Source of the DNA: an uncultured Gemmatimonadales bacterium
GTDB lineage: Bacteria; Gemmatimonadota; Gemmatimonadetes; Gemmatimonadales; GWC2-71-9
DNA: 64,000 bases
Reading direction: 5' to 3'
Assembly: GCA_963695555.1 (NCBI GenBank)
Contig: CAVOGR010000007.1
Coordinates: forward strand, 128,001-192,000
The position numbers were made by a program, and so were the translations under genes. The notes beneath the pieces were generated by a model, which was given only the letters and a program-made list of their open reading frames with translations, ran no database searches and was not told the origin of the DNA. Positions 1-60,223 of this stretch are shown here, piece by piece (position 1 is the stretch's first letter; the number at the start of each line of letters is the position of its first letter).

Positions 1-187
1 GGGTCGTACGGGAGGCCACGAGCGGGGCATGGAGCCGCCGGGCAAGTTCCGCCGCGAGATCGAGCGCGCCCGGATCATATCCGCGATGGCTGGACAGGAC
101 CCGCTCGGCGGACGCGAACAGTGCGGCATAGCGCCGTGGAACGGTGTTGCCGCCGTGCTCGCACGACACCACCACGGCGCTAGGCAT
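1..187 (-). CDS. N-formylglutamate amidohydrolase family protein (5' part; runs off the window)
   Basis: Not in the ORF track. Manual translation from ATG 187 gives MPSAVVVSCEHGGNTVPRRYAALFASAERVLSSHRGYDPGA; the CEHGGN and HRGYD motifs are typical of the FGase family. The start overlaps the end of the GCS2 gene. Confidence 0.85.
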   Translation of the reverse strand, partial: MPSAVVVSCEHGGNTVPRRYAALFASAERVLSSHRGYDPGALDLAAELARRLHAPLVASRTT

Positions 188-1424
188 GTGGCCTGAGCTG
201 CCTCCCCTCGGAAAGACACGCCGCCAACTCCCGGTAGAGCAATACCATCCCGTCGCGAGACGGTCTGGTGCCCAGCCGGGCCAGCATGCGACGGGCAAGG
301 CATCCGTCGCGCCCGATGACCTCGAGCGACCCATGTAACTCGGGCGGGATGGTATCGTTGGCGCAGTATCGCTCCGCCAGCACTCGCCACACTTGCCCGA
401 CTGTACGGCTCGGCGCGCCGCCACATCCCAGCAGGGTCAGGTAGTCGTCGTCCGGAACCGGTGCCGCGCCAGCCTGGTGGATGGTCGACTCCAGGAGCGC
501 CCGCAACGCGGCACCCGGATAATCACGCTGCTCCGTCCACCGGCTGGCCTCCTCCGTGGCAAGCGTCTCGACCACCGCCGATACGAGTGCCGCGATGGCC
601 ACGTCGGCCTGGGGACATTCCTGCATGTCGATCACCCGGATCTCGACCGTGCCTCGGTCGAACCGGGCGATGGCACCCCGAGCGTTGACCCACTCGTCCC
701 GCAAGATCCCTTCGGGATCGAGCGGCGCCAAGTCGCGGTAGATGGGTTCCAGGATGCGTTCATGGTATTCCGCTTCCGATTCGACCGGTTCGGGAATCAC
801 TGCGCCGGCAATGGACGGAATCCGGGCGGCATTCGACTGATAGACCGCGAGCCGGGTGTCGAGCGAGCCGCTGACCGCGCCGTCCGCGATGGGCGTGCTC
901 GCGGCGAGGGCGGGAATGATGGGCAGCACCAGTCGAATAGCCGAGTGCAGCCTGGCAAACTCAGCATCATCGGAAAACGGCAGGTTGACGTGAACGCTTT
1001 GGAGATTGGCCCACCCGTGGCGGGCGCAATCGAACAGGCGATCGAATGCGGCGTACACCTCGTGGAATTCGTGGGGCCACATACGGAACTCCTGCCGGGG
1101 GTCCATCCAGGGATGGGTGCCCGTCGGAAGGAGCCGTGAGCGCCACGGCTCGAGCCGTTCGTTGATGTAGACGACTTCGCCCTGGAATTGATCCGCGAGC
1201 CCAGCGAGCGTGTCGACCGGCCCATTGGTCTTGAGCTCGATCAGATGGAGCGCCAGCTCGTTGGACCAGCCCATGTTGCCGCGCTCGACATCGCACACGA
1301 TGGCACCGGCCTCGGCTTCGAGCAGCCGGTCGGCAATGGGACGCACGGCGAGAGACTCGGCATCGACAATCATGTACTCGAGCTCGATCCCGATTGCCTC
1401 GAACAGGCCGAGACGGGCGGTCAT
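180..1424 (-). CDS. Glutamate--cysteine ligase family 2 (GCS2) carboxylate-amine ligase
   Basis: Motifs GIELEYMIVD, ELALHLIELKT, QSVHVNL and NARGAIARFDRGTVEIR. ATG 1424 overlaps the upstream TGA (ATGA). The ORF track fuses it to the RimK-like gene only because of a frameshift. Confidence 0.88.
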   Translation of the reverse strand: MTARLGLFEAIGIELEYMIVDAESLAVRPIADRLLEAEAGAIVCDVERGNMGWSNELALHLIELKTNGPVDTLAGLADQFQGEVVYINERLEPWRSRLLPTGTHPWMDPRQEFRMWPHEFHEVYAAFDRLFDCARHGWANLQSVHVNLPFSDDAEFARLHSAIRLVLPIIPALAASTPIADGAVSGSLDTRLAVYQSNAARIPSIAGAVIPEPVESEAEYHERILEPIYRDLAPLDPEGILRDEWVNARGAIARFDRGTVEIRVIDMQECPQADVAIAALVSAVVETLATEEASRWTEQRDYPGAALRALLESTIHQAGAAPVPDDDYLTLLGCGGAPSRTVGQVWRVLAERYCANDTIPPELHGSLEVIGRDGCLARRMLARLGTRPSRDGMVLLYRELAACLSEGRQLRPHA

Positions 1425-2897
1425 AACGTGGCCGGGGCCACGCCTCGTTCGTCGAGCTTGGTCCGGAAGTACTGCATGATGGCCAGGTACAGCTGGTCCC
1501 CCAGGATGATGTCCTCGTACCCGGCGTCGATGGAGGGGTTGTCGTTGATCTCGATGATCCGGAACTTCCCGTCGATCTCCTTCACGTCCACTCCGTAGAG
1601 TCCGTCGCCAACCAACGAGGCGGCCTTGACGCCCAACTCGACGGCGCGCGCCGGCGCGTCCTCGAGCGCGACCGCCTCGACCTCGCCCATACCGGCGCCG
1701 ACCGGTGCGCCCACTGATGATCTGCCAATGGCCCCGTGCCATGTGGTATTTGCAGACATAGAGCGCTTCGCGATTCAAGACGCCAATCCGCCAGTCGAAC
1801 CCGGTCGGCAGCCATTCCTGCACGATGGCCAGGTCGGACTGCTCGAACACCTGCTTCAGACACTCCACGAATTGATCGTGTCCCTGCTCGATCTTGATGA
1901 CCCCCTGCGAGAACGAGCTGTCCGGCAGCTTCACGACGCAGGGGAACCCGATGGCGGCGGCCACCTGCTCGACATTGTCCTCATGAACCACCATGGTCTT
2001 CGGACACGGCAGCTCATAGCGGTCGAACAACTCCGCCTGGTACACCTTGTTGGAGCACCGGATGATCGACTCGGGGTCATCCACGACGATCAGCCCCTCG
2101 GTCGCGGCACGCTGGGCAAACCGGAAGGTGTGGTGGTTGACCGACGTCACTTCCCGAATGAACAGGGCGTCGAATTCCGCAATGCGGCCGTAGTCCTCGG
2201 GACCGATGACGCTCGCCGCGATTCCTACTTCCTGGGCCGCCGTGATGAATTTCTTGATCGAACGCTCCCAGGACGGTGCGTTTTCATCGAGGGGGTTCCA
2301 GAGAATCGCGAGATCGTAGCGGGCAACCTGGGGCTTCGCTCGGCGCGCGTGTTTCGGCTTGGCGAAGTACCGCCCCGCCTCGGCCTCCACGAAATCCTGG
2401 TGGGCTTCGGGGATTTCGCTGGTCGCGATGGGGCGGAGGCCCTGCAACTTCCAGCGCGCGTCCTCCAGGACAAAGCTGGCGCGGAGCAACGGCGCGGGAA
2501 ACTGATTGAAGAGCGCACGGCTCAGCCGATCGTAGCGCTTCGCAAGGTTGCGCCCGAAGTAGATGCTCAACTCGAACGATTCGGACTTGAGCGGCGCCAG
2601 GTTCCGTTGGATCAGATCGTCCAGATCCTCTCCCACGATGCGCAAGATGGGCGAGAGCTGGAGCGCCTGGATGGTGGCCACCGAGGGCATGGGCTTGTGC
2701 CCCCGAGCGGCGGCCAGCAGCGAGACGTAGTAGCCGAGTCCTTGATAGCCGTACCGGCGGCAGAGGTTGTACACCGTGGTTCGGCGCAGTTCGGCGTAGC
2801 GCGGATCGGTTAGATAGGCGCGAGCCGAGACGACCTCCACGTCGGGAATCGTGAAGTGCCACCGCTTGGTGTTCTCGATGACGATGAGGGGCTTCAT
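1421..2897 (-). CDS. RimK-family ATP-grasp ligase with N-terminal RLAN domain (apparent +1 frameshift at 1686-1688)
   Basis: N-terminal NLCRRYGYQGLGYYVSLLAAARGH; ATP-grasp motifs VKLPDSSFSQGV and QEWLPTGFDWRIG. The C-terminus GLYGVDVK...EINDNPSID lies in another frame (ORF 1421..1759); removing one G from GGG restores a continuous frame. Confidence 0.88.
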
Positions 2898-3619
2898 ACC
2901 TGGTTGGGAGAGGGCTCGATGACGAGCAGGTTGGCATCGTAGGTCAGTGCGCCGAGCAGGACCGCACCGAGCAGTCGTTGGATGCCGACGGGGTAATAGT
3001 GCGTACCGAACCGTGGGTTGTCCTGCAATGGGTCTGCGACCAACGCCTCATCGGAATCCAGATCGTACCCGTAGAGCACCACGAAGTGCCCGGCGGGTGC
3101 TCCCCGAATATCGTCGTAGTGGATCTTGATCTCGCCTCGCTCGCGGGCGCAGCCGAACAGGTACGTGGCGCTGAGCCCCGTCAGCACCGGATGACCCCGG
3201 TTCAGGTACCGTCGGATCAGATCGGGGTTCAGTTCCTCGAATCGGATTCGCCCGCCCAACTCGAGGAACCGCAGGTAGGCCTTGGTCGCAAAGCGGAGCT
3301 TGGTCGTGCGCTTGGCCTTGGCCTGCGCTTTCAGCCGGTCAGTCAGATCGACCCCACCGTCGACAAACCAGCTCGGGTCGAACACGGTGAGGTTGTAGGT
3401 GAAAATGGTTGCCTGGTAACCGCGCTCGAGCGCGTGGTGCGCCAAGAGCACCGATAGGGTCCCCCCGCCCTTCAGCGGCTTGACCTCGTCGATCACCTGA
3501 CGCAGCGGCAGGTGATCGCCGTAATACCGATAGACCGCGTGCAGGCAGGTCGGACCACAGGTGATGTCGTCCGGCTGCGGCAGGATTTCGAGCGTGAGCT
3601 TGGGGCTGCTAGGGTCCAT
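2894..3619 (-). CDS. Peptidase C39-like (papain-fold) protein
   Basis: QPDDITCGPTCL (Gln...Cys), GHFVVLYGYD (His), ADP (Asp). ATGA overlap with the RimK-like gene. Confidence 0.85.
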   Translation of the reverse strand: MDPSSPKLTLEILPQPDDITCGPTCLHAVYRYYGDHLPLRQVIDEVKPLKGGGTLSVLLAHHALERGYQATIFTYNLTVFDPSWFVDGGVDLTDRLKAQAKAKRTTKLRFATKAYLRFLELGGRIRFEELNPDLIRRYLNRGHPVLTGLSATYLFGCARERGEIKIHYDDIRGAPAGHFVVLYGYDLDSDEALVADPLQDNPRFGTHYYPVGIQRLLGAVLLGALTYDANLLVIEPSPNQV

Positions 3620-3666
3620 TGGCTATTGGCTATTGGCTATTGGCTATTGGCTATTGGCTATTGGCT
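3618..3666. repeat. Perfect heptamer tandem repeat (ATTGGCT)x7
   Basis: Seven exact copies counted directly; the first copy overlaps the start codon of the C39-like gene. Confidence 0.97.
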
Positions 3667-3790: not shown

Positions 3791-3850
3791 CGTGTGCAAA
3801 TCTCCCCCCTAGACGCATCTCCCGCGCGAACAGTCACTCAGGAGGACGAA

Positions 3851-6118
3851 ATGTACCGCCAACTGACGCTCGTTGCCGCCCTGACGGTGGGGGCCGCGAC
3901 GGCCTTGCCCGCCCAGGGGTGGGTTGAACTCGAGACCCCCCGGAGGCCCGGCATCGTCATGGGGCCGGTCGTTCGGGTGAGTTCCAACGTCCGGACCACC
4001 ATCGACGGGCGCGTCGCCCGGGTCGAGGTGGAAGAGCAATTCCGAAACACCGGTCCCCGCATCGCGGAGGGCAGTTACCTGTATCCCCTACCCAAGAACG
4101 CCGTGTTCAGCGACTTCTCGCTCTGGATGGGCGATCAGGAGATCAAAGGCGAGATCATGAATGCCGGTGAGGCGCAGCAGATCTACGAGGACATCGTGCG
4201 CCGCCTGAAGGACCCCGCCCTGCTTTCCTTGGAAGGCCACGGTCTCATTCGTGCTCGGGTTTTCCCCATCCAGACGGGCGAGACCCGGCGGGTCAAGCTG
4301 CGCTACACCCAAGTCCTGGAACGGGCCGGCGACGCCATGCGGCTGCGTTACAGCATCGGGCCGCGCCATCACGGACCCGAGCACGGTCACGGTGGAACCG
4401 AGTCATCGTTCCGCGATGACTTCAGCTATGAGGTGAGCGTTCCGAGTGCGAACGATATCGGAACGCCCTATTCGCCGACCCACCCGATCGAGACCGAACG
4501 ACGGAATGGCCGGTTGATCGTCACGTTGAGTCCCGACGCTACCGGCGACGTGGACCTCTTCATTCCACTCCGCCGCGGTCTGGTCGGCACCAGCATCCTG
4601 ACCCACGCCCCTGGCGGTGAAGACGGGTTCTTCATGCTGTTGCTCGCCCCACCGCACAACGAGGCAGGCCAAGCGGTGCCGCGCGATCTCTCGCTGGTAG
4701 TGGACATCTCGGGATCGATGTCGGGGGACAAGCTGGAACAGGCCAAGCAGGCGTTGACTCAGGCGCTGGGGACGCTCGGCCCGGCGGACCGGTTCCGGCT
4801 CGTGGCGTTCTCCTCGAGTATCCGGCATTTCCGTGACGGGTTCACCCCTGCCACGGCGGCCAATCTTGCCCAGGCGCGCCGATTCGTGGCAAATCTGACC
4901 GCAACCGGCGGCACCAATATCGCCGGGGCGCTCGACGCTGTGCTCGGCAGCGCGGTCGCCGAGGACCGGTTGCCCATCATCGTGTTCATGACCGATGGGT
5001 TACCCTCGGTCGGCGAGCGGGAACCCGATCGGATCGCCGAAGCAGCGTCTAGCCGGATCGGACGCGCGCGCATCTTCACCGTCGGCGTTGGCCACGACGT
5101 CAACACCTATCTACTCGACCGGCTCGCGGTCGAGGGGCGCGGCAGCGCCGAATACGTCGCACCCGATGCCGACGTGGAGGTCGCGGTAGGATCACTGCTC
5201 TCCAAGATTCAATTCCCGGCGCTGGTCAATCTGCGGATCGTCAGCTCGCCGGTCGAGTTCCGCCAAGACTATCCGGCCGAGCTTCCCGACTTGTTCTACG
5301 GCGAGGAACTGGTGGTGTTCGGACGGTATCATGGCCAGGCCACCGGAACCGTAGTGATCGAAGGCGAGCGGAACGGTCGTCGAGAGCGGTTCACTGCCCG
5401 GGCAGCCTTTCCACGCAGCGAGCATGACAACGACTACATCCCGCGGCTCTGGGCCGCGCGGAGAATCGGCGACCTGACTCGGACCATCCGGATCGAAGGA
5501 TCGACTCCCGAGTTGATCAACGAAGTGCGGGACCTGGGCCTTCGGTACGGCATCATCACGGAGTACACCTCCTACCTGGTGCTCGAACCGGGCATGCAAC
5601 CCGGAGTAGCCCGGGACGACATGCGCGCGAACGCGCCCATGGCTCCAGCCCTCGAAGGTGGCGCACGCCAGGCCCGGGCCCAAACCGGGAAGGACGCGTT
5701 CAAGCGAGCGGAGGCCAGTTCCGAGATGGCGAGTGCCAAGACCCTGGCCGCGGCGGACGCCGTCGCAGAAAACCGCATGCGGGCCATAGGCGGTCTGTCG
5801 GATGAGCGGGAGGGAGATGCGGTGAACGCCCGCGAGGCGCAGGTTCGCCGAGTAGCTGGCCGCCTGTTCGTGCGGCACGATGCGACGTGGACCGACGCCC
5901 GGCACAGCGACAGCCTGGGAATCATCGAGGTGGCACCCTTCAGCGATGCCTACTTTGCCCTGGCACGAGCGTTGCCGGAGATTCGACCCTACCTTTCAAT
6001 CGACGGCAGCGTGGTGATCGCCGGCCAGCGGGCCAGCATCAAGGTCACCGATTCAGGTGCCACATCCATGTCAGAGCGTCGCATCAACCAGGTGGTTCGC
6101 ATGTTTCGAGGGACATGA
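3851..6118 (+). CDS. Secreted VIT + von Willebrand factor A domain protein
   Basis: GGAGGA SD before ATG 3851; signal peptide; VIT region (VEVEEQFRN...EGSYLYPLP...RVFPI); MIDAS motif DISGSMSG; MTDG. Confidence 0.9.
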   Translation: MYRQLTLVAALTVGAATALPAQGWVELETPRRPGIVMGPVVRVSSNVRTTIDGRVARVEVEEQFRNTGPRIAEGSYLYPLPKNAVFSDFSLWMGDQEIKGEIMNAGEAQQIYEDIVRRLKDPALLSLEGHGLIRARVFPIQTGETRRVKLRYTQVLERAGDAMRLRYSIGPRHHGPEHGHGGTESSFRDDFSYEVSVPSANDIGTPYSPTHPIETERRNGRLIVTLSPDATGDVDLFIPLRRGLVGTSILTHAPGGEDGFFMLLLAPPHNEAGQAVPRDLSLVVDISGSMSGDKLEQAKQALTQALGTLGPADRFRLVAFSSSIRHFRDGFTPATAANLAQARRFVANLTATGGTNIAGALDAVLGSAVAEDRLPIIVFMTDGLPSVGEREPDRIAEAASSRIGRARIFTVGVGHDVNTYLLDRLAVEGRGSAEYVAPDADVEVAVGSLLSKIQFPALVNLRIVSSPVEFRQDYPAELPDLFYGEELVVFGRYHGQATGTVVIEGERNGRRERFTARAAFPRSEHDNDYIPRLWAARRIGDLTRTIRIEGSTPELINEVRDLGLRYGIITEYTSYLVLEPGMQPGVARDDMRANAPMAPALEGGARQARAQTGKDAFKRAEASSEMASAKTLAAADAVAENRMRAIGGLSDEREGDAVNAREAQVRRVAGRLFVRHDATWTDARHSDSLGIIEVAPFSDAYFALARALPEIRPYLSIDGSVVIAGQRASIKVTDSGATSMSERRINQVVRMFRGT

Positions 6119-6615
6119 GTCTCGACATCGGTCAGCTGTACCAAGAGTACCACGGGTCCCTCGTCCGGATGCTGTACCGCCGGACGGGGGATCCGGACCG
6201 GGCGGAGGACCTGGCACAGGAGGTCTTCGCTCGGGCGGTGCAGACTCCGCCCAGGAATCCGCGACCGTGGCTGTTTGCAGTCGCGCTCAACCTGGTGCGG
6301 GAGGACGGACGCAAGGCGGTGCGACAAGGCCGTCGACTCGAACTCTACCGGGCGGAGACGGCTCGTTCCGCACCGGCGCCGGACACGGAGGTGGAACGGG
6401 ACGAGCAAATCGCTGAAGTCCGTGCCGCGCTCGATGTGCTGACCGAGCGCGATCGCGAGGCGCTGCTGCTCAAGGCGGAAGGGTTCAACTACGAAGAGAT
6501 CGCCGCGACGCTAGGGCTGGCAAAGGGAGCCGTGGGAACAACACTCGCACGGGCCCGCCGCCGATTGGTCGAGGCGTATCACGGTGAAGGACGGAAAGAC
6601 AATGCCGCACCCTGA
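6115..6615 (+). CDS. ECF RNA polymerase sigma factor
   Basis: AEDLAQEVF, WLFAVALN, and sigma4 HTH YEEIAATLGLAKGAVGTTLARARRRL. ATGA overlap with the vWA gene. Confidence 0.92.
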   Translation: MSLDIGQLYQEYHGSLVRMLYRRTGDPDRAEDLAQEVFARAVQTPPRNPRPWLFAVALNLVREDGRKAVRQGRRLELYRAETARSAPAPDTEVERDEQIAEVRAALDVLTERDREALLLKAEGFNYEEIAATLGLAKGAVGTTLARARRRLVEAYHGEGRKDNAAP

Positions 6616-7885
6616 AGAAGGAATGTTCCACGCGTTGCTCGACGGGGAGTTGACTCCCGACGAGGTGCGCATCATCGAAGCCCACATGGCGTCGTGCGCT
6701 GCGTGCGCCGCGCGGCTCGAGGACGTGCGTGCCATCTTCGACGAATCCACGGCCCTGGTGGACCGGCTGGAACTACCCGAACGAAAAGCCTCGGGTTCCT
6801 CCGCGCCACCACTCGACCTGGTTCGCGCCAAGCGAGCTCGGACCATCCCGAGGCAACGGCTCCGCACCTTGGCATGGGCGGCCACAGTGGTCATCGCCGC
6901 CGGCGCAGGCTACCTGGCGAGCGATTGGCGTCACCGCGTACCCGGTCAAACACCGGCCTCGGCGATGAATGAGAGGGGCCAAGTTCCAGCCGTTTCCACT
7001 GAGCAGGCGTTGGGTGATCGAGCCGCCGACTCGCCGGGCGACGAAGCTGCGCAGCGCGTGGCCCAGGCAGACCTCCCGAGCGTTGGCGCGGCGCGGCCTC
7101 TCGAACGAGAGCAGGAGCGGGCCATGGACCGGAGAGCTGCCGCACCGGTGCCCGCCACCCCGGCGCCGGTCGATGCCGTGGTGGGCGGCGCGGCCCAAGG
7201 TGGAGCGGCTCGAGGCAACGTGAGCGGCGAGCCCGAACTCGAGTCTCCCGCAGCGCGGCGTGACCGCCTCGCCCAGGTCGCGAGGGCCGAGGAGCGCGAC
7301 GCGGGGCGCGCCGCCGATGCGCCGGCGGTCCAAGCACCCGGAGCGGATGCCGCCGCATCGCGGGCCGCTGTCTCGGGGCTGGTCGAGGACGCCCGGCGCG
7401 AGGGCGATTTTGCGAAGGCGGCCCAGGCGGCGCCGGCCGAAGGATTCCGGGCCCAGGTGACTCCGCCCCGACCCGTAACATTGGAGGACGCGGTCGACGC
7501 GTTGAACGGCGCCATCCGTCTCGTTGATGGTGCCTCGCTCACCCGCGTCGAGACGAGCGATCCGCCGGCCGTGCCCTGGGCCGAGGTCGAGGGTCCGCTG
7601 GTCAGGGTGGTCTATCGACTCGAAGGCGCGGAGGTCGTGCTCAGTCAGGTTCGGATAAATCCGGGACGCGAGGCAGTCGCGGAACGAGCCGCCGCCAAGC
7701 GTGCGCTGGACGCCGTTGGGGATGTCGGCACGGTTCCACACCTTGCTCCAGGTGATACCCTCGTTGTGGCAGAACCCGGCGGCGGGTACCGGGTGTGGTG
7801 GCTGGACGGTTCCCGCCGGATCCTGTCACTGTCGGGGCCACTCGGCCAAGATGCCCTGAAACGGATCGTCGATCGAATCCGCTAG
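6602..7885 (+). CDS. Zinc-binding (zf-HC2/ZAS) membrane anti-sigma factor, paralogue 1
   Basis: LLDGEL...HMASCAAC; one TM helix; Ala-rich linker; C-terminal domain shared with the next two genes. Confidence 0.85.
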   Translation: MPHPEEGMFHALLDGELTPDEVRIIEAHMASCAACAARLEDVRAIFDESTALVDRLELPERKASGSSAPPLDLVRAKRARTIPRQRLRTLAWAATVVIAAGAGYLASDWRHRVPGQTPASAMNERGQVPAVSTEQALGDRAADSPGDEAAQRVAQADLPSVGAARPLEREQERAMDRRAAAPVPATPAPVDAVVGGAAQGGAARGNVSGEPELESPAARRDRLAQVARAEERDAGRAADAPAVQAPGADAAASRAAVSGLVEDARREGDFAKAAQAAPAEGFRAQVTPPRPVTLEDAVDALNGAIRLVDGASLTRVETSDPPAVPWAEVEGPLVRVVYRLEGAEVVLSQVRINPGREAVAERAAAKRALDAVGDVGTVPHLAPGDTLVVAEPGGGYRVWWLDGSRRILSLSGPLGQDALKRIVDRIR

Positions 7886-7967
7886 GCCTGTCTCGGTCCT
7901 CGCCCGGCACCGGTCCCGCGTGGTATCTTTGTAGGACCCTTTTGATTCAGGACCAGACGCGCGGACG

Positions 7968-8921
7968 ATGGACCACGTCACCGAAGAGACCCTCAGGAGC
8001 CTCCTGGAGAACCGGATGAGCCGGGTCGCCCAGGCACAGGTGCGTCATCACATCAGCACCTGCTTCCGCTGCGAGGAAAAGCTGCGGGAGTGGCGGGCAT
8101 CCATCGACGCACTGAGTGACCCTTCGGAGAAGGCCAGGACGCCCTACCCCAAGACCGAGGCCGCAGCGCCGACCATCCTGGTTCCAGCGCAGCCTGTCCT
8201 TCTATCGAAGCATTCGCGATGGGCCGTCCGAACGGTGTTGGCGGTCGTGGCGGTGATCGCCGTGGCCTTATTGGTCGAGACCATCAGGCAAGACCGCCAA
8301 CAAGAGGGTAGCGAAGGAGCCCAGGCAGGATCGCTCATCCAGCGAAGCCAGGCGGCTCTTCAAGCCGGTATGGACAGCACGCTCGCCGCCCGGGGCTCTG
8401 CCCTCCCGGTACCTCCGACCGACAGCGGCACATCGCAGGAGCCCATCGCTACGCCACCCGCCCCGGCCAAGCCGACCGATCTGGCTCGGCCGGACAGTTC
8501 GAAATCAGCCCCTTTGGCACCCGAAGTGGCTCGGGAGCCCACGGCACCGAGCGTCACCGGCCCTGGGTTCAGCCGATTGACGGTGAGCGAGGCCATTGAG
8601 CGCACCGGAGGGCCGGTGCTCTTGATTCGGGGCCTCCTGCCGGACCACCTCGAAGTTGCCCCGGCAAGGGCGGTCCCGGGCGCCCTGCCCGGAAGCGAGG
8701 TGCTCCGCGTGGTCTACCGGGAGCCGGGCGGCCGAATCCTGTTGTTGGACCAGCAGAAGATCCCCGAGGCCTACCGCTCCGGGCTTGCTGCCGACACCCT
8801 CATCGATTCCGAACCGGGCGGGTCGTCTCTCGCCATCTGGGTCAGCGGCGAGACCCGCGTCACCCTCTCGGGCCGGATAGACCCCGAAACCCTCATGGTC
8901 TTCGTGCGCCGGGTCGACTAG
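7968..8921 (+). CDS. ZAS anti-sigma-like membrane protein, paralogue 2
   Basis: HISTCFRC; TM VLAVVAVIAVALLV; Pro-rich linker; shared C-terminal domain. Confidence 0.8.
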   Translation: MDHVTEETLRSLLENRMSRVAQAQVRHHISTCFRCEEKLREWRASIDALSDPSEKARTPYPKTEAAAPTILVPAQPVLLSKHSRWAVRTVLAVVAVIAVALLVETIRQDRQQEGSEGAQAGSLIQRSQAALQAGMDSTLAARGSALPVPPTDSGTSQEPIATPPAPAKPTDLARPDSSKSAPLAPEVAREPTAPSVTGPGFSRLTVSEAIERTGGPVLLIRGLLPDHLEVAPARAVPGALPGSEVLRVVYREPGGRILLLDQQKIPEAYRSGLAADTLIDSEPGGSSLAIWVSGETRVTLSGRIDPETLMVFVRRVD

Positions 8922-9010
8922 CCGGGAGAAGAGGACCCGGTCCGATCGCCCGTCATTGGGGCCGTGAGCTAGATCACGGCCCCTTTTTCTTGCCAGCGAC
9001 ATCATAAGGT

Positions 9011-9913
9011 ATGAAGCACCCCCCCGACGACGCCCAGGCCCACCTCGACCACCTGGAACTGGCTGCGGCCGTCGCGGGAAGGCTGGATCAGGTTAGCACA
9101 CAGCGTCTGGTGCGGCATCTCCAGCAATGTGAAGCCTGTGCCACCGAGGCATACGCATGGGGTATCCACCTCGATGACGAGGGCAACTTGAAGACGAGCC
9201 AGCCGTCCTCGATGACGGGTCCTCATCGGATCCTCTTCCCCGTGGGTCATGCCGGCTACGACATGCCGACCCGGAGGCCGAAGCGCTCTCCGGCCGTGTG
9301 GTTGGCGGGGGTCTTGGTCATTACGGCGCTGGGGGCGGCGCTGTTGCTGCTGCCGCGGGCCGACGCGTCGGGGCCGTTGGTCGCCCACGATTCATCCGCG
9401 CCCGCCGCCCGGGGCTCCACGAGTCTGCTCGCCGGCATGTCGCCGCCCATCGTCGCGGACGTACCCTCTCTCTCCTCAGACCAAGAGTTCCCGGCGTCAG
9501 TGGCGCGAGCGATGGTGACGGCAGAGGTCGTGACCATGCCGCAGTTCCGGGTCATCACCCCGGAAGAGGCCAAGGCCAGGCTCGCCGGGTCACTCCGGAC
9601 CATTCCCGCCCTGACGCTGACGCGGGTCGAACTCGGGCCCGGCGCCGCCGTGCCGCTCGCGCTGCCCGACATCGAGGTGGTTCGCCTGGTCTATCAGTCT
9701 CCGGCTGGGGATCTGTTACTGCTCGATGAACAGCGGCTGCCGGTGAGCGCGGACCTTGGCGACGTGGGCATCGCGCCGGGCGACACGCTCATCTACAGCG
9801 ACACGCGAGGCATCACCGTCGCAACCTGGCTTGCAAGCCGCACACTCAGACTGTCGCTCGCGGGGCAAATGGATCATGAGGCCATCCGCCAAGTCATGAC
9901 CGGCATCCGGTAG
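9011..9913 (+). CDS. ZAS anti-sigma-like membrane protein, paralogue 3
   Basis: HLQQCEAC; TM WLAGVLVITALGAALLLL; shared C-terminal domain. Confidence 0.8.
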   Translation: MKHPPDDAQAHLDHLELAAAVAGRLDQVSTQRLVRHLQQCEACATEAYAWGIHLDDEGNLKTSQPSSMTGPHRILFPVGHAGYDMPTRRPKRSPAVWLAGVLVITALGAALLLLPRADASGPLVAHDSSAPAARGSTSLLAGMSPPIVADVPSLSSDQEFPASVARAMVTAEVVTMPQFRVITPEEAKARLAGSLRTIPALTLTRVELGPGAAVPLALPDIEVVRLVYQSPAGDLLLLDEQRLPVSADLGDVGIAPGDTLIYSDTRGITVATWLASRTLRLSLAGQMDHEAIRQVMTGIR

Positions 9914-9931: not shown

Positions 9932-10468
9932 TCAGCCTTCGGGCTTTCGATCATGAGGGATGGTGGTAATGCCCATCCCGACCACGAAGAACCCGTACCC
10001 GGGGTCGGCTCCCGCAATGAAGCGGCGTTCGACATCGAATCGGAGCCCGATCGACGGTGCGATCTGGATGATCGTTCCCGCACCCGCATAGACATTGAAG
10101 GCACCGCCCCCGCCACCCTCAGCGACCGCGGCAAGCACCGACGCGCCTCCGCGGGCGAATACGGTCGCCCGAGACAGCCGGGCGGGAACGACCATTCCCA
10201 CGTCGGTCAAGAACACCAGAGCCCCATCGCTGAAGCCCGCGGGAAAGACCGAGAACGCGAAGTCCGCCCCGATGCCTTCCTTCGCGAGCTTGGTGGCTCG
10301 TAGGGTAAGGGTTGATGTAGCGAACTCGTTGTACCAGCCGACCCGCTGAACCGAGCCGCCAATGGCCCAACCGGCCGGCATCCGCGTGGGGGAGGGTCCC
10401 TGGGCCTCGAGCGCGCCCGTGAGGACCCATGCAAGGAACAGGGTCAGCGAGAATAGGGCCTGCCGCAT
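9932..10468 (-). CDS. Exported outer-membrane beta-barrel-like protein
   Basis: Signal peptide MRQALFSLTLFLAWVLTGALEA; alternating amphipathic strands (ARGGASV, VYAGAGT, GLRFDVE). Confidence 0.65.
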   Translation of the reverse strand: MRQALFSLTLFLAWVLTGALEAQGPSPTRMPAGWAIGGSVQRVGWYNEFATSTLTLRATKLAKEGIGADFAFSVFPAGFSDGALVFLTDVGMVVPARLSRATVFARGGASVLAAVAEGGGGGAFNVYAGAGTIIQIAPSIGLRFDVERRFIAGADPGYGFFVVGMGITTIPHDRKPEG

Positions 10469-10568: not shown

Positions 10569-13310
10569 ATGATCCGCCTCAAGACTCTTGGGTCCCTGGA
10601 GCTTCTGGGCGCCGGGACGGCCGATTGTGAGGCCGTCCTGCGTCAGCCCAAACGGCTGGCTCTCCTGACCTACCTGGCCTGCGCCGCGCCGCGACGATTT
10701 CATCGGCGCGATTCCCTGCTGGCTCTTTTTTGGCCGGACCTGGATACCTCGCACGCCCGCGGCGCGCTGCGCCGGGCGCTGTATTTCCTGAGAAGTGCCC
10801 TTGGGGATGACGTCCTGGTCGGACGGGGCGAGGAGGAAATCGGCGTCGATGAAGACCTGCTCTGGTCGGACGTCCGGGCCTTCGAGCGCGCATTGGCTGA
10901 CGGCCGGCGCGACGAAGCGCTCGGGCTCTATCAGGGCGATCTGCTCGAGGGGTTCTTCATTAGTTCGGCACCGGACTTCGAGCGGTGGCTCGACACCGAG
11001 CGCTCCGCACTCAGGACCGCAGCGGCGCGAGCGGCGTGGTCGATCGCCGAAGAAATGGAAACGACAGACCCTCGGAAGTCGCTCCAGTGGGCCAAACGCG
11101 GAGCCGATCTCACTCCACATGAGGAAGAACCGCTTCGCCGCCTGATGGAATTACTCGACCGCCAGGGCGACCGGGCAGCCGCGCTGTCGTCCTTCACCGC
11201 ATTCGAGCGGCGGCTGGCCGAGGAGTTCGAGCTCACGCCGTCGCAGGAGACCGTAACGCTGGCCGAAAGAATTCGGGCACAGGGCGCTGCACCTGTAGTC
11301 GTGCCGGGCGAGACAGTCCCAATCGCGCCGTCACCGGACCTCGTTGCGGTCCTGCCATTCACCGTATCGGCCCCGGACAAATACGCCTACCTGGCCGAGG
11401 GCATGGTCGACCTGCTGAGTACCAAGCTGGATGGCACCCGCGCGCTGCGCGTGCTGGACCCGCGAGCACTCCTCGGCTGGCTGGCTCAACACGGACAGCA
11501 GGCCGACACTCCGACCGTGACCAGTGACGTGGTGGCGCGCTTCGATGCGGCGCACGTGTTGACGGGCAGCGTGGTAGTAGGAGGCGATCGCGTTCAGCTC
11601 TCGGCCACGCTGTACGATCGGCGTGGCACGGTCGAGCTGGTGGCGGAGGCCGCGGGTGAGGCCGAGAATGAACTGTTCGATTTGGTCGACGAGATCGCGC
11701 GTCAGCTGTTGGCCTCCCGGAGTGTCGGGCCGGCCGGCCGGGTGGCCCGACTCGCGGCGCACACGACCCGGTCACTGCCGGCCCTCAAGCATTACCTGGA
11801 AGGCGAGCATTCATTCCGAGGGGGAGAGTACTTCCAGGCGATCGCGGCGTATCAACAGGCCGCGGCCACCGATCCGGATTTCGCTCTGGCGCACTACCGG
11901 TTAGCAGCGGCGCTCGCCGCGTGTGCCATGCCCGAGGGCGCGCGCCTCGAGGCAAATCAGGCACAGACACATCGCTCACGCCTCGCGCCTCACGATCGCT
12001 TGTGGTTGGATGCCCAGCTCGCCTGGCTCGAGGGTCGCTCAACCGAGGCCGAGCGATTGTACTCGGACATTGTCGCTCTCTACCCCGATAACGTCGAGGC
12101 CTGGTATCTCCTGGGCGACCTGTTGGTCCATCACAATCCATATCGGGGGCGGTCCATCACCGAGGCGCGGGTGCCCTTGGAACGGGCCATTGCCCTCGAC
12201 CCGGATCACATGAGCGCCATGGGGCACCTCGCACGGATCGCGGCGCTCGAAGGCCGCTCGGACGATGTCGCCGATCTGGTGGACCGGATCTTCGTCACGA
12301 ACCCAGCCGGCGACCAGGGGCTCCCGATGCGCGCCCTCAGGGCATTTACCCTGTTTGACGCTCACGAGGAATCGAACGTACTCGACGGATTGAAGAATGC
12401 CCGTGCCCTGACGATCGGGATCGCGTTCTCGGACGTGGCGCTGTACTCGGGCAACCTGGCAGGGACCGACCGCTTCGCGCGACAGTTCCTCGCGGTGGCC
12501 CGATCGCCGGAGCTTCAGGCGCTGTGTCACATCATCCTGGCCCACATGGAGGCCATGCGTGGCCGGCACGTCCTCGCGCTCGAGGCCCTCGACGAGGCAC
12601 AAGAACTCGACCGCGCCTGGGCTCTCGAGATGCGGGGATTGTTCGCCGCCTGGCCGTTCTTCGTCATGGAACCCGGCCAGGTGGCCCGGATCCGTGACGA
12701 GCTAGGCGAGTGGGATGCCGCGGCGACCCCACCGAGCCCACAGCTGCCGTTACGCGTCCACAACGACCTGCACCCTCGTCTCCGTTTCTACCTGCTCGGA
12801 CTTCTCAATGCCCGACTTGGTCATTTCGATCGGGCGAGTAAGTGCGCGGCTGCCCTCGAGTCGGCGGCTCTGGCCGGAGCAGTCGGCGCGTTTCCGGCAT
12901 CGCTCGGTGCCGGGGTCAGGGCCCGGATCGCCTGGGAAGAGGGAGACCACGCGAACGCCCTCCAGGCGCTCGAGGCCGATCGCCCGGCGCTCTGGTTTCA
13001 GCAGGCGGTGAGCTCTCCCTTTTTCGGCCGGATTCTCGAACGCTTCATGCGGGCCGAGCTGCTTTGGAGCCTGGGACGACACGCGGAATCGGCGTCGTGG
13101 TATCGGAGTCTGGTCCAACGCTCGCCGTTTGAGCTACCGTACCGCCCCATGGTCGAGGCCCGTCTGTACGAGCTAGCTCTGGAAGACGGCAACGCCGCGG
13201 CGGCACGCACCCACGAGATCCGCGTGCGTGCCATGTTGGAGGATGCGGACGCTCGACTCCTCGATACCATGGCGAGGTATGCGCCAACGCTGTTCGCTGG
13301 AGGGAAATGA
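10569..13310 (+). CDS. SARP/BTAD transcriptional regulator with TolB-N-like and TPR domains
   Basis: LKTLGSLEL...QPKRLALLTYL...RRDSLLALFWP...LYQGDLLEGF; AVLPF motif; TPR helices. Confidence 0.88.
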   Translation: MIRLKTLGSLELLGAGTADCEAVLRQPKRLALLTYLACAAPRRFHRRDSLLALFWPDLDTSHARGALRRALYFLRSALGDDVLVGRGEEEIGVDEDLLWSDVRAFERALADGRRDEALGLYQGDLLEGFFISSAPDFERWLDTERSALRTAAARAAWSIAEEMETTDPRKSLQWAKRGADLTPHEEEPLRRLMELLDRQGDRAAALSSFTAFERRLAEEFELTPSQETVTLAERIRAQGAAPVVVPGETVPIAPSPDLVAVLPFTVSAPDKYAYLAEGMVDLLSTKLDGTRALRVLDPRALLGWLAQHGQQADTPTVTSDVVARFDAAHVLTGSVVVGGDRVQLSATLYDRRGTVELVAEAAGEAENELFDLVDEIARQLLASRSVGPAGRVARLAAHTTRSLPALKHYLEGEHSFRGGEYFQAIAAYQQAAATDPDFALAHYRLAAALAACAMPEGARLEANQAQTHRSRLAPHDRLWLDAQLAWLEGRSTEAERLYSDIVALYPDNVEAWYLLGDLLVHHNPYRGRSITEARVPLERAIALDPDHMSAMGHLARIAALEGRSDDVADLVDRIFVTNPAGDQGLPMRALRAFTLFDAHEESNVLDGLKNARALTIGIAFSDVALYSGNLAGTDRFARQFLAVARSPELQALCHIILAHMEAMRGRHVLALEALDEAQELDRAWALEMRGLFAAWPFFVMEPGQVARIRDELGEWDAAATPPSPQLPLRVHNDLHPRLRFYLLGLLNARLGHFDRASKCAAALESAALAGAVGAFPASLGAGVRARIAWEEGDHANALQALEADRPALWFQQAVSSPFFGRILERFMRAELLWSLGRHAESASWYRSLVQRSPFELPYRPMVEARLYELALEDGNAAAARTHEIRVRAMLEDADARLLDTMARYAPTLFAGGK

Positions 13311-57689: not shown

Positions 57690-57774
57690 CGGCTCCTGGC
57701 CAGCCCCGCGTGCAAGAATGAGAGGCCCCGGCATCTCCCCCTCGAGCACGCTCGACCCGAACCCGGGAGCCCTC

Positions 57775-58362
57775 ATGCTACGAGTCCACTACATCCTGGG
57801 CGCCGCCTACCTGGCCCTCTGCATCATGCTGCTCCGGGCCACCGGCACGGCTCCTCGCCCGGAGTTCCTCCCGCACCCGACGGGCACGACCCAAATCGCC
57901 CCCGCAACCGGCGAGGCCGGCGCATGGTTCGCCAGCATGAAGCCATACTGCAACGCGGTCGAAGTGGAGACCCGGCAACGGGCCACGCCCCCGCCCGAGA
58001 CGCTGGAAGGATTGGGCTACAGCGCCGGCTGCTACGCGTTGGGCGGGAAGATCGACCTCGCGCGCGAAACGATCCGACGCGCCCCCGCTGATCAGCAGTA
58101 CAAGGCAGCCGGCATTGTGTTCGCTCTGGCGCATCCCGTGGCAGACGCCGGTGATGACAAGTCGGCCGGACCGATCATGGAGCTGGTCCTCGAGTTCTGG
58201 CCCAACCACTACCAGGCACGCTATCACGCCGGGATGTCGTCCTACATCCTCGGCGACGCCGGACGGGCCCGCCTGCATCTCACGCAGTTCGTCGACGAGT
58301 ACCGGCAGAACGATGGCTGGCGGCGGAATGCAGAGGCCGTGCTGCAACGCCTCGACAACTGA
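57775..58362 (+). CDS. Membrane-anchored/exported TPR-like protein
   Basis: N-terminal hydrophobic helix; helical repeats (WPNHYQARYHAG...A...L..F). Confidence 0.7.
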   Translation: MLRVHYILGAAYLALCIMLLRATGTAPRPEFLPHPTGTTQIAPATGEAGAWFASMKPYCNAVEVETRQRATPPPETLEGLGYSAGCYALGGKIDLARETIRRAPADQQYKAAGIVFALAHPVADAGDDKSAGPIMELVLEFWPNHYQARYHAGMSSYILGDAGRARLHLTQFVDEYRQNDGWRRNAEAVLQRLDN

Positions 58363-58366
58363 CGGC

Positions 58367-60223
58367 ATGGCTACTCCGGCGGCGTATCTCCCCATCGGGA
58401 CCGTGCTCACCGATCGCTATGAGATCCTGCGAGAGATCGGTCGCGGGGGGTACTCGGTCGTGTTCGCGGCCCGGGATCGCGATCTGGGTGCCGACGTCGC
58501 CATCAAACTTCTGGTGCCGCCTCCCGCGGTCGCCCACATCGCGCGGGAGCGCATGCGGCGCGAGGTCCAGGCCGTCCGGGCGCTGTCGCACCACCATATC
58601 GTCGCAGTCCACGATTTCGTGGAGGACGGCCCGCACAGCTTCATCGTCATGGAGCTGGTCGATGGATCCGATCTCGGCGTCCGCGTGGCGCAGCGCCAGC
58701 CACTCGGTCTCGACGAGGTCGCCCGAATCGGAGAGGAGGTGGCGGAGGCTTTGGCCTTCGCCCATGCACGCGGCGTCCTCCACCGCGACGTCAAACCGCA
58801 AAACATCTTGATCGACTCCGGGGGCCACGCTCGCCTCACCGACTTCGGCTCCGCCAAACTCGATGGCCAGATGACGGTGACGCAGACCGGCGGACTTGTC
58901 GGAACGATCCCGTACAGCGCTCCCGAGGTACTGAGCGGGCATCGCGGCGACGCCCGCGCTGACATCTACGCCCTCGGCCTGACACTGTTCTACGCCGTGA
59001 CCGGACGGCTGCCTGGAAGCCCAGGCTCTCGCCTCCCGCCACCCGCCACGCCGGGCGGACACCATCCCGGCGAGTGCCGTGACGGGGTCCCGAGCTGGCT
59101 GGATCAGATCATCGCGCGGGCAACGGAGGCGGAACCCGGCCTTCGATTCCCCGCCGCCTCCGATCTCCACGCAGCACTCAGAGCCCGCGCCGGAGACCAC
59201 GTTGCGCTTTCCGCGGCGGGACATCAGATGGTCGAGTTCTGCCTGAGCTGCGGCAGCAGTGACACGTTCGGGATGAGTCCCTGCCCGGAGTGCGGGGGCA
59301 CGAGACCGAAGAAGGCCGACACGTTAGTCTTCGTAGTCCCTCCCGCCAGGCGGAAGGATCGGCTCGCAGTTGCCCTCAATCTTGCGGGGTTATCCCCGCA
59401 CCCCGTCTCCCAAGTCGAACTCCGGCACGCCACCCGCGGACGCAGGGCCCTGGTGCGTATTCCGGCGCACCACGCGGCGTCCGTGATCAGGCACCTCACT
59501 GCCCGAGACATCCCGGTGCAAGCAGTCCCCAAGGCCCACGCCTGGGCGGCGGTTCCCCTCCCGCTCTACGCGCTGGCGGGCGCCATCGTCGTGGTCGGAA
59601 GCCTGGCGGGAATACTCGCATTGCCTGCAATGCTCTGGACCTCTCCGGTGGTCGCCGGGCTCCTGGTCATCGGAGGGCACCGAACCGCCCACACCCCGAT
59701 TCTTCACGCCGCTCAGAACGGCACCCGGACGCTCCCGCACGACCTCGCGTCCCGCGTGACTCGCACCATGGCGGTGCTCGGCCCCGGCACGACGCGCCGC
59801 ATGGTGGCGGACATTGTGACAGTGGGCCAGGCCGTCCTCGCCGATATTGCCGCGGCGGATGGACCGGGCGATCAGCGTGCCGATATCGTCGCGCTCCTTG
59901 CTGGCGTCAGCGACGTTGCCGATGACCTGGCAAATCTCGAACGGGCCCTGGCCACGCTCGAAACCCATCGCGATCGCTTTGCCGCCAACCCCGAGCGATG
60001 GCTCGACGCCTTGTCGCAATGCGAGCGTGCCCACGATCGCCAGGTACAGCAGCTGCTCGACGTGCTCTCGATCCTGGCTCGGCTCAAAGCCCAGGGAACG
60101 ATGTCCGACGCGACGGCGCAGGAGGAATTCGCCGAGCTGACCCGGCGGCTGGAACGAGACGCCGACGCACGGGCACTTGCGGAGGCGGAAATCGAGGAAC
60201 TGCTTGCACCGGACGATGCGTGA
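58367..60223 (+). CDS. Ser/Thr kinase with zinc ribbon, two TM helices and C-terminal coiled coil
   Basis: GRGG, VAIK, HRDVKPQN, DFG, APE; CLSC...CPEC. Confidence 0.9.
   Translation: MATPAAYLPIGTVLTDRYEILREIGRGGYSVVFAARDRDLGADVAIKLLVPPPAVAHIARERMRREVQAVRALSHHHIVAVHDFVEDGPHSFIVMELVDGSDLGVRVAQRQPLGLDEVARIGEEVAEALAFAHARGVLHRDVKPQNILIDSGGHARLTDFGSAKLDGQMTVTQTGGLVGTIPYSAPEVLSGHRGDARADIYALGLTLFYAVTGRLPGSPGSRLPPPATPGGHHPGECRDGVPSWLDQIIARATEAEPGLRFPAASDLHAALRARAGDHVALSAAGHQMVEFCLSCGSSDTFGMSPCPECGGTRPKKADTLVFVVPPARRKDRLAVALNLAGLSPHPVSQVELRHATRGRRALVRIPAHHAASVIRHLTARDIPVQAVPKAHAWAAVPLPLYALAGAIVVVGSLAGILALPAMLWTSPVVAGLLVIGGHRTAHTPILHAAQNGTRTLPHDLASRVTRTMAVLGPGTTRRMVADIVTVGQAVLADIAAADGPGDQRADIVALLAGVSDVADDLANLERALATLETHRDRFAANPERWLDALSQCERAHDRQVQQLLDVLSILARLKAQGTMSDATAQEEFAELTRRLERDADARALAEAEIEELLAPDDA

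Follow-up and report, generated by a model that had tools for sequence, protein, structure and literature searches.

A Gemmatimonadales ECF sigma factor operon followed by two divergent zinc-binding anti-sigma paralogues with predicted promoters of their own

The RpoE-RseA-RseB system of Escherichia coli and the AlgU-MucA-MucB system of Pseudomonas aeruginosa are the described systems to which we liken a five-gene locus of an uncultured Gemmatimonadales bacterium. The locus lies in a stretch of 64,000 nucleotides (assembly GCA_963695555.1, contig CAVOGR010000007.1, positions 128,001 to 192,000), hereafter the window, and encodes a VIT-vWA protein, a sigma factor of the extracytoplasmic function (ECF) type (sigma A) and three paralogous anti-sigma proteins (AS1, AS2 and AS3). 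In contrast to RseA-RseB and MucA-MucB, a domain resembling the C-terminal domain (CTD) of RseB is here fused in one chain to a zinc-binding anti-sigma (ZAS) head, the lipid-binding N-terminal domain is absent and there are three paralogues. With the ZAS anti-sigmas RsiW, RslA and RsrA, as described in the accessible part of PMC2877774, AS1, AS2 and AS3 share the HxxxCxxC motif and an upstream His, and AS1 passes the Pfam zf-HC2 cut-off (34 bits; cut-off 22.2). Unlike RsiW, RslA and RsrA, AS2 (12.6 bits) and AS3 (19.2 bits) fall below that cut-off, lack the aspartate equivalent to Asp11 (D11) of RseA and have separate predicted promoters.

In gene order the locus recalls ECF255 of the Bacteroidetes, for which the available portion of Casas-Pastor et al. 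2021 gives a vWA gene at -1, an anti-sigma with a single transmembrane (TM) segment at +1 and a GCATCT -10 element. However, the same portion gives ECF255 a TATGGAT -35 element (GTGCAA here), a TonB_C domain on its anti-sigma and DUF3520 on its vWA protein, where ours has VIT, and the phylum is a different one. The ECF289 and ECF226 groups, as far as their accessible descriptions go, have vWA plus DUF3520 fused to the anti-sigma, whereas the vWA protein is here the product of a separate gene and has no DUF3520 match. Two anti-sigmas for one ECF sigma factor are already known: RpoE2 of Sinorhizobium meliloti has the paralogues RsiA1 and RsiA2, one encoded in the operon and one elsewhere (PMC8103513), but this is a cytoplasmic partner switch of the NepR type, for which the part of the source available mentions no ZAS, TM segment, outer domain or CRP link. 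The DUF4367 anti-sigmas (ECF106, Firmicutes), according to the accessible group description, likewise have a single TM segment and a small outer domain; unlike them, only one of 43 members of the outer domain family studied here matches DUF4367 (PF14285), at E 0.14, and a genome search for that family gave none. By the features tested, the locus is not a member of the MucB/RseB, DUF4367, ECF255 or ECF289 systems as the available part of PMC7826278 delimits them. A phrase search of the accessible ECF 2.0 supplement returned no group with two anti-sigmas, and literature searches found no description of such a system.

We tentatively propose, with slightly less than even confidence, that the locus consists of an autoregulated ECF operon (VIT-vWA, sigma A, AS1) and two separately transcribed genes, AS2 under housekeeping and AS3 under cAMP-CRP control, whose products tune the release of sigma A. 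AS1 would keep sigma A tethered to the membrane. The RseB-CTD-like domain of AS1 would form an integral cap for docking or protection, in place until stress on the envelope sets off regulated proteolysis (the genome codes for proteases of the M50 and trypsin-2 families). Freed sigma A would then transcribe vWA-sigma-AS1 and at least one other gene for an exported protein. AS2 would supply a constant, sigma-independent pool of a weaker inhibitor of altered affinity, a hairpin would shield AS3 from read-through, and active cAMP-CRP would provide more AS3 inhibitor, the AS2 and AS3 pools raising the activation threshold. If true, a one-to-one ECF/anti-sigma switch gains inputs through inhibitor duplication, a loosened sigma contact and a global metabolic regulator, and the extra copies tie an envelope-stress switch to metabolic state. 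Reporters and two-hybrid assays in E. coli would serve to test each part of the proposal.

Table 1 Features of the locus and related elements (window positions, unless a locus number is given)
Feature	Position	Strand	Remark
Predicted sigma-A promoter: -35 GTGCAA, 15-nt spacer, -10 GCATCT	3794..3820	+	conserved before vWA orthologues
VIT-vWA (ITIH-like), exported, 755 aa	3851..6118	+	first gene of the operon; MIDAS-type DISGS
ECF sigma factor, sigma A, 166 aa	6115..6615	+	Pfam sigma70 r2, r4_2
AS1, ZAS-TM-linker-RseB-CTD-like anti-sigma	6602..7885	+	C-domain ~7460-7882; overlaps sigma gene
Predicted extended -10 TGG-TATCTT, AS2 housekeeping promoter	7921..7929	+	
AS2, divergent ZAS paralogue	7968..8921	+	C-domain ~8556-8918
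Terminator-like GC hairpin (10 bp) and U tract	8958..8988	+	z -5.1; between AS2 and AS3
CRP-type box GTGA-N6-TCAC, core of the hairpin	8964-8977	+	
Predicted AS3 -10 CATCAT, class II CRP-type, leaderless	9000..9005	+	
AS3, AS2-subfamily member specific to the genus	9011..9913	+	C-domain ~9533-9910
Second predicted sigma-A promoter (57710-57736) and 195-aa gene (at 57775)	57710..58362	+	weak TPR-like matches
C-domain on other signalling proteins	L201:3617-5542, L203:3378-5033, L242:1855-4773, L243, L244, L245		

The five genes lie where a sequence-only reading of the window had placed them, and the overlaps described there are borne out (4 bp, ATGA, between VIT-vWA and sigma; 14 bp between sigma and AS1). 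The VIT-vWA protein matches Pfam VIT (E 5.7e-23) and VWA_3 (E 2e-18), begins with a segment that by eye is signal-like and has a dN/dS of 0.05-0.11. Sigma A matches Pfam and TIGR02937 models above cut-off, and its nearest named relatives are from Gemmatimonadales. The succession of HxxxCxxC motif, TM segment, linker and C-terminal domain (C-domain) noted earlier is present in all three anti-sigmas; the best 19-residue hydropathy is 2.5 in AS2 and AS3 and just 1.47 in AS1, whose segment is weak, and the low-complexity linkers consist of 59-65% A/P/S/G/T/E. The C-domains, previously aligned by eye, are homologous (pairwise BLASTP E 3e-8 to 2e-21), and the motifs picked out by eye do align. AS1, of canonical form, is the likely cognate inhibitor of sigma A. 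Coupling holds for vWA-sigma-AS1, but not for AS2 and AS3, a point missed in the sequence-only reading; these two follow after gaps of 82 nt (AS1-AS2) and 89 nt (AS2-AS3) and have predicted promoters of their own.

GTGCAA-N15-GCATCT is kept 5' of vWA in two families, with a CGTC form in family f3, and the loci of a paralogous sigma factor (sigma B) show TGTGCAA-N14/15-CGTC. For regulon inference cross-genome conservation alone was used; single-genome scans were at background for both the sigma-A pattern (7 matches, versus 3-6 at control spacers) and the sigma-B pattern (6 versus 4-7). The vWA-sigma-AS1 operon is likely to be autoregulated by sigma A. Since vWA comes first in this predicted sigma-driven operon, its product would be mainly an output; among the roles of ligand, partner or output originally suggested for it, output fits best. 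The motif of the second predicted sigma-A promoter is found in 4/4 orthologues of the genus to which the bacterium belongs, and in a GCATC or CGTC form in 8/12 overall, and the 195-aa gene behind it is a likely member of the sigma-A regulon. The surrounding region (57710-60223) has a Ser/Thr kinase gene directly after the 195-aa gene. A divergent gene nearby encodes what we take to be a sulfide:quinone-reductase-like protein.

The hexamer TA[GCT][ACG]TT occurs within 100 nt upstream of 28/33 AS2-class genes, in 17 cases 5-9 nt before the start, against 2.2 expected from shuffles and 5/32 in controls, the motif having been defined after viewing the same sequences. The box ahead of AS3 is presumably a CRP-type palindrome (consensus TGTGA-N6-TCACA). 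In 5/5 genomes of the genus a CAnnnT hexamer comes exactly 22 nt after it, with the ATG of AS3 a further 5-6 nt on. The same arrangement precedes 9/33 AS2 genes, with a spacer of 22 in all 14 instances (21-23 allowed), and 5/9 held-out genes, from genomes outside the motif definition (spacer 22 in four, 23 in one); the four held-out misses belong to one genus. Controls gave 1/33, 0/34 and 0/12, and random windows 0.7% of 3000. The pattern is found neither before the window's own AS2 nor before any of the 17 AS2 genes of g13, and a single-genome scan did not give a clear genome-wide enrichment.

The spacing measured to the ATG, taken as a predicted leaderless start, would put the box centre at -40.5/-41.5; the position of a class II CRP site is about -41.5 (PMC2859248, accessible part). 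A single CRP above cut-off is present in the genome; it has an SRETVSR helix besides its cNMP and HTH domains, and among regulators it is nearest to the Crp-family structures, including E. coli CAP; CRP orthologues are present in 5/5 genomes tested, and there is one class III cyclase in the genome. The AS3 promoter is thus a likely target of activation by cAMP-CRP. The U tract of the hairpin is present in 4/5 genomes of the genus, and G003 is without it yet keeps the spacing. Scanning with the sigma-70 consensus gave 0 promoters, and 4 terminators were predicted (3.3 expected), neither being evidence alone. In metatranscriptome contigs from four estuary runs, X1 has flat depth and a 4.5-kb contig extends across convergent genes; DNA carry-over is therefore possible, and neither expression nor transcript ends were read from these data. 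The predicted ECF-sigma and CRP promoter motifs are supplied for a little-studied phylum. CRP-type boxes were also seen 3' of AS2 in g13 (L173-L179), with 22-23-nt spacing at 7/17 loci, where they mostly precede a gene for a small exported beta-barrel-like protein; at G000 C2:139191 a perfect box is followed by a similar gene.

In profile searches the C-domain, which the sequence-only reading could not assign to a named family, is covered by no Pfam or NCBIfam family. PF17188 (MucB/RseB) matches 1/31 C-domain members (E 0.046) and nothing in a genome search. A LolA-like N-terminal domain is not found beside the C-domain, which follows the low-complexity linker and TM segment; PF03888 has sub-threshold matches alone, elsewhere in the genome. 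PDB sequence searches with profiles of the domain returned nothing significant. The AlphaFold2 model of the AS3 C-domain (pLDDT 91.5) has the MucB/RseB CTD as its best fold match, and this is the predicted fold of the domain; ESM Atlas scores below 0.9 were taken as a lead only, DUF4367 being a weak lead at 0.85-0.87. The C-domain is matched by 565 cluster representatives and also ends Ser/Thr-kinase, DUF4388 plus carboxypeptidase-regulatory, and TPR-like membrane proteins; the kinase-borne C-domains nest among the AS1 domains of the same genus. These data support an extracytoplasmic module reused across signalling proteins. If the prediction is true, a lineage-wide extracytoplasmic domain without a name gets a fold and a testable role.

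In a tree of ZAS plus C-domain columns (32 of 154 collected domains, C-domains below 95 aa excluded), AS2, AS3 and the orphan copies group together in a single clade (UFBoot/SH-aLRT 96/91), placed inside a set of unresolved AS1 lineages. The AS2 of the genus comes out as the sister of AS3 with weak support (91/67). A further tree gave a similar picture, and a genus-level triplication is not rejected by the approximately unbiased (AU) test (2,000 replicates, p 0.10). The aspartate equivalent to RseA D11, a position set at a constant distance from the His, is present in 57/57 AS1 and 35/35 B-type anti-sigmas but in only 13/33 AS2 and 0/3 AS3, the residue in the window being Glu in AS2 and Ala in AS3. 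According to the available part of PMC7406223, D11 of RseA is a key sigma4 contact, and some anti-sigma groups use a hydrophobic sigma4 contact instead. CxxC-x6-W is a signature diagnostic for AS2 plus AS3, and the four zinc ligands are invariant in 13/13 AS2-class rows. AS2 and AS3 belong to an older subfamily separate from AS1, and the three anti-sigmas do not look like equivalent sensors made from one transcript.

Within the genus, the dN/dS of the C-domain is 0.07-0.32 in AS1, 0.12-0.27 in AS2 and 0.02-0.25 in AS3, below that of the linkers, relative to which the ZAS regions of AS2 and AS3 are likewise constrained; counts are small and dS saturates in distant pairs, and the AS1-versus-G003 ZAS row (a contig without the region) and rows flagged short were excluded. 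These values support the retention of the extra anti-sigma copies by selection.

The D11-equivalent Asp and the LDGEL motif have been lost and the zf-HC2 scores are low, which favours a different account. In it AS2 and AS3 are blind to sigma and act, from promoters of their own, as extracytoplasmic decoys or co-receptors, with the signal, some partner or the site-1 protease being titrated by their RseB-CTD-like domains, or as hetero-oligomers with AS1. The service of the C-domain in proteins other than anti-sigmas (kinase, DUF4388, TPR) fits such a role, as does the binding of the MucB/RseB counterpart domain to an anti-sigma helix (PMC7400510, accessible part). We consider it unlikely, though deserving of serious attention, because strong conservation is seen in the zinc ligands and in an EEWR helix peculiar to the subfamily, and the ZAS region is under purifying selection, which implies a cytoplasmic partner for AS2 and AS3.

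Three copies are present in 5/5 genomes of the genus, the five-gene run being unbroken in G000 and G002 and interrupted at contig ends in the remaining three. Conservation of the triple in relatives, whose absence the sequence-only reading had named as counter-evidence, was seen at genus level but not beyond, where no tandem triple appeared among 301 genomes (a third match in G149 was left aside). The other three-match genomes outside the genus are G320, with a frameshifted AS1 plus AS2 (L182), and G080, with one orphan and two matches of identical score on separate contigs. A second copy recurs more widely: an AS2-specific profile picks out 43/401 family genomes, from 11 genera (matches to E 4.1e-17, the following one at 1.9e-14). 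Five genomes that were inspected carry their AS2-class gene away from any sigma gene, and such an unlinked gene would need its own promoter. The vWA gene adjoins 48/57 sigma-A loci and is missing beside 9/57, these being the loci with vWA or with 1.5 kb or more of DNA upstream, unevenly spread over genera. G020 has two vWA-sigma-anti-sigma operons (L034, L167) whose C-domains are almost identical.

The genome of the window also contains sigma B, on contig C4, with a fourth anti-sigma of the family (AS-B), not noticed in the sequence-only reading, and no vWA gene, and AS2 and AS3 might be anti-sigmas for sigma B, or insulate sigma A from it. The GTGCAA -35 element is common to both sigma factors, a sigma paralogue of 50-56% occurs in 39/43 AS2-class genomes (B-type confirmed in 5/5 tested), and family f3, which has sigma A and AS1, gives an AS-B match in 0/12 and just one C-domain match in each genome. 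We nevertheless hold this to be improbable: AS2 nests in the AS1 lineage and not with AS-B, it usually adjoins sigma A, and many genomes with both sigma factors have no AS2. Sigma A itself is present in 40/43 AS2-class genomes, the three misses being fragmented assemblies. Cross-regulation of orphan ECF sigma factors, raised in the sequence-only reading, finds no candidates, as 14/14 ECF-like sigmas of this genome (87% complete) have, on inspection, an anti-sigma-like open reading frame (ORF) downstream. Sigma B and its anti-sigma (L001:8713-10177, G000 C4) converge on a respiratory gene cluster, which we assume to resemble alternative complex III.

The original proposal of multi-input control is plausible, but we find it quite improbable in the version that has three receptors from one transcript acting side by side as gates of a single sigma and makes the VIT-vWA protein their ligand or binding partner. 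The vWA-sigma-AS1 synteny is in its favour, as is the fusion of a vWA domain to the anti-sigma in ECF226 and ECF289 (PMC7826278, accessible part); set against these are the promoter motifs proper to AS2 and AS3, the terminator-like hairpin, the orphan AS2 genes and the B-type anti-sigmas, which bear the C-domain without a vWA neighbour. The evidence favours an input at the promoters over three sensors in one transcript. That the additional copies are superfluous duplicates on the way to being lost, for which the restriction of the AS2 class to a minority of family genomes and the degenerate sigma-contact motif could be cited, is scarcely credible given the intact frames, the conserved promoter geometry and an AS2/AS3 C-domain dN/dS of 0.02-0.27 out to the remotest genus member.

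The preferred reading, an autoregulated operon with separately transcribed AS2 and AS3, can be widened into a possible, if doubtful, evolutionary one: a ZAS subfamily with fused RseB-CTD-like caps and cAMP-CRP class II promoters would inhibit an envelope ECF sigma factor in trans, CRP tuning the ECF response through production of a second anti-sigma, and a duplication in the genus would have yielded a constitutive AS2 and a cAMP-inducible AS3, the CRP box doubling as an insulating terminator.

The neighbourhood of the locus has further features. Upstream, a 905-aa ORF (180-2897, minus strand) probably results from a frameshift that joins two genes, with a plausible true C-terminus in another frame (1421-1759); we take its parts to be ATP-grasp (RimK-like) and glutamate-cysteine-ligase-like. 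Between a C39-peptidase gene and the ECF promoter a 7-nt unit is repeated seven times in tandem (~3619-3666), and metatranscriptome contigs that are unrelated to the locus pile onto this repeat. Downstream, a small exported beta-barrel-like protein with no Pfam match is encoded convergently to AS3 (9932-10468, minus strand), and a gene for a BTAD-TPR transcriptional regulator (10569-13310, plus strand) adjoins the locus.

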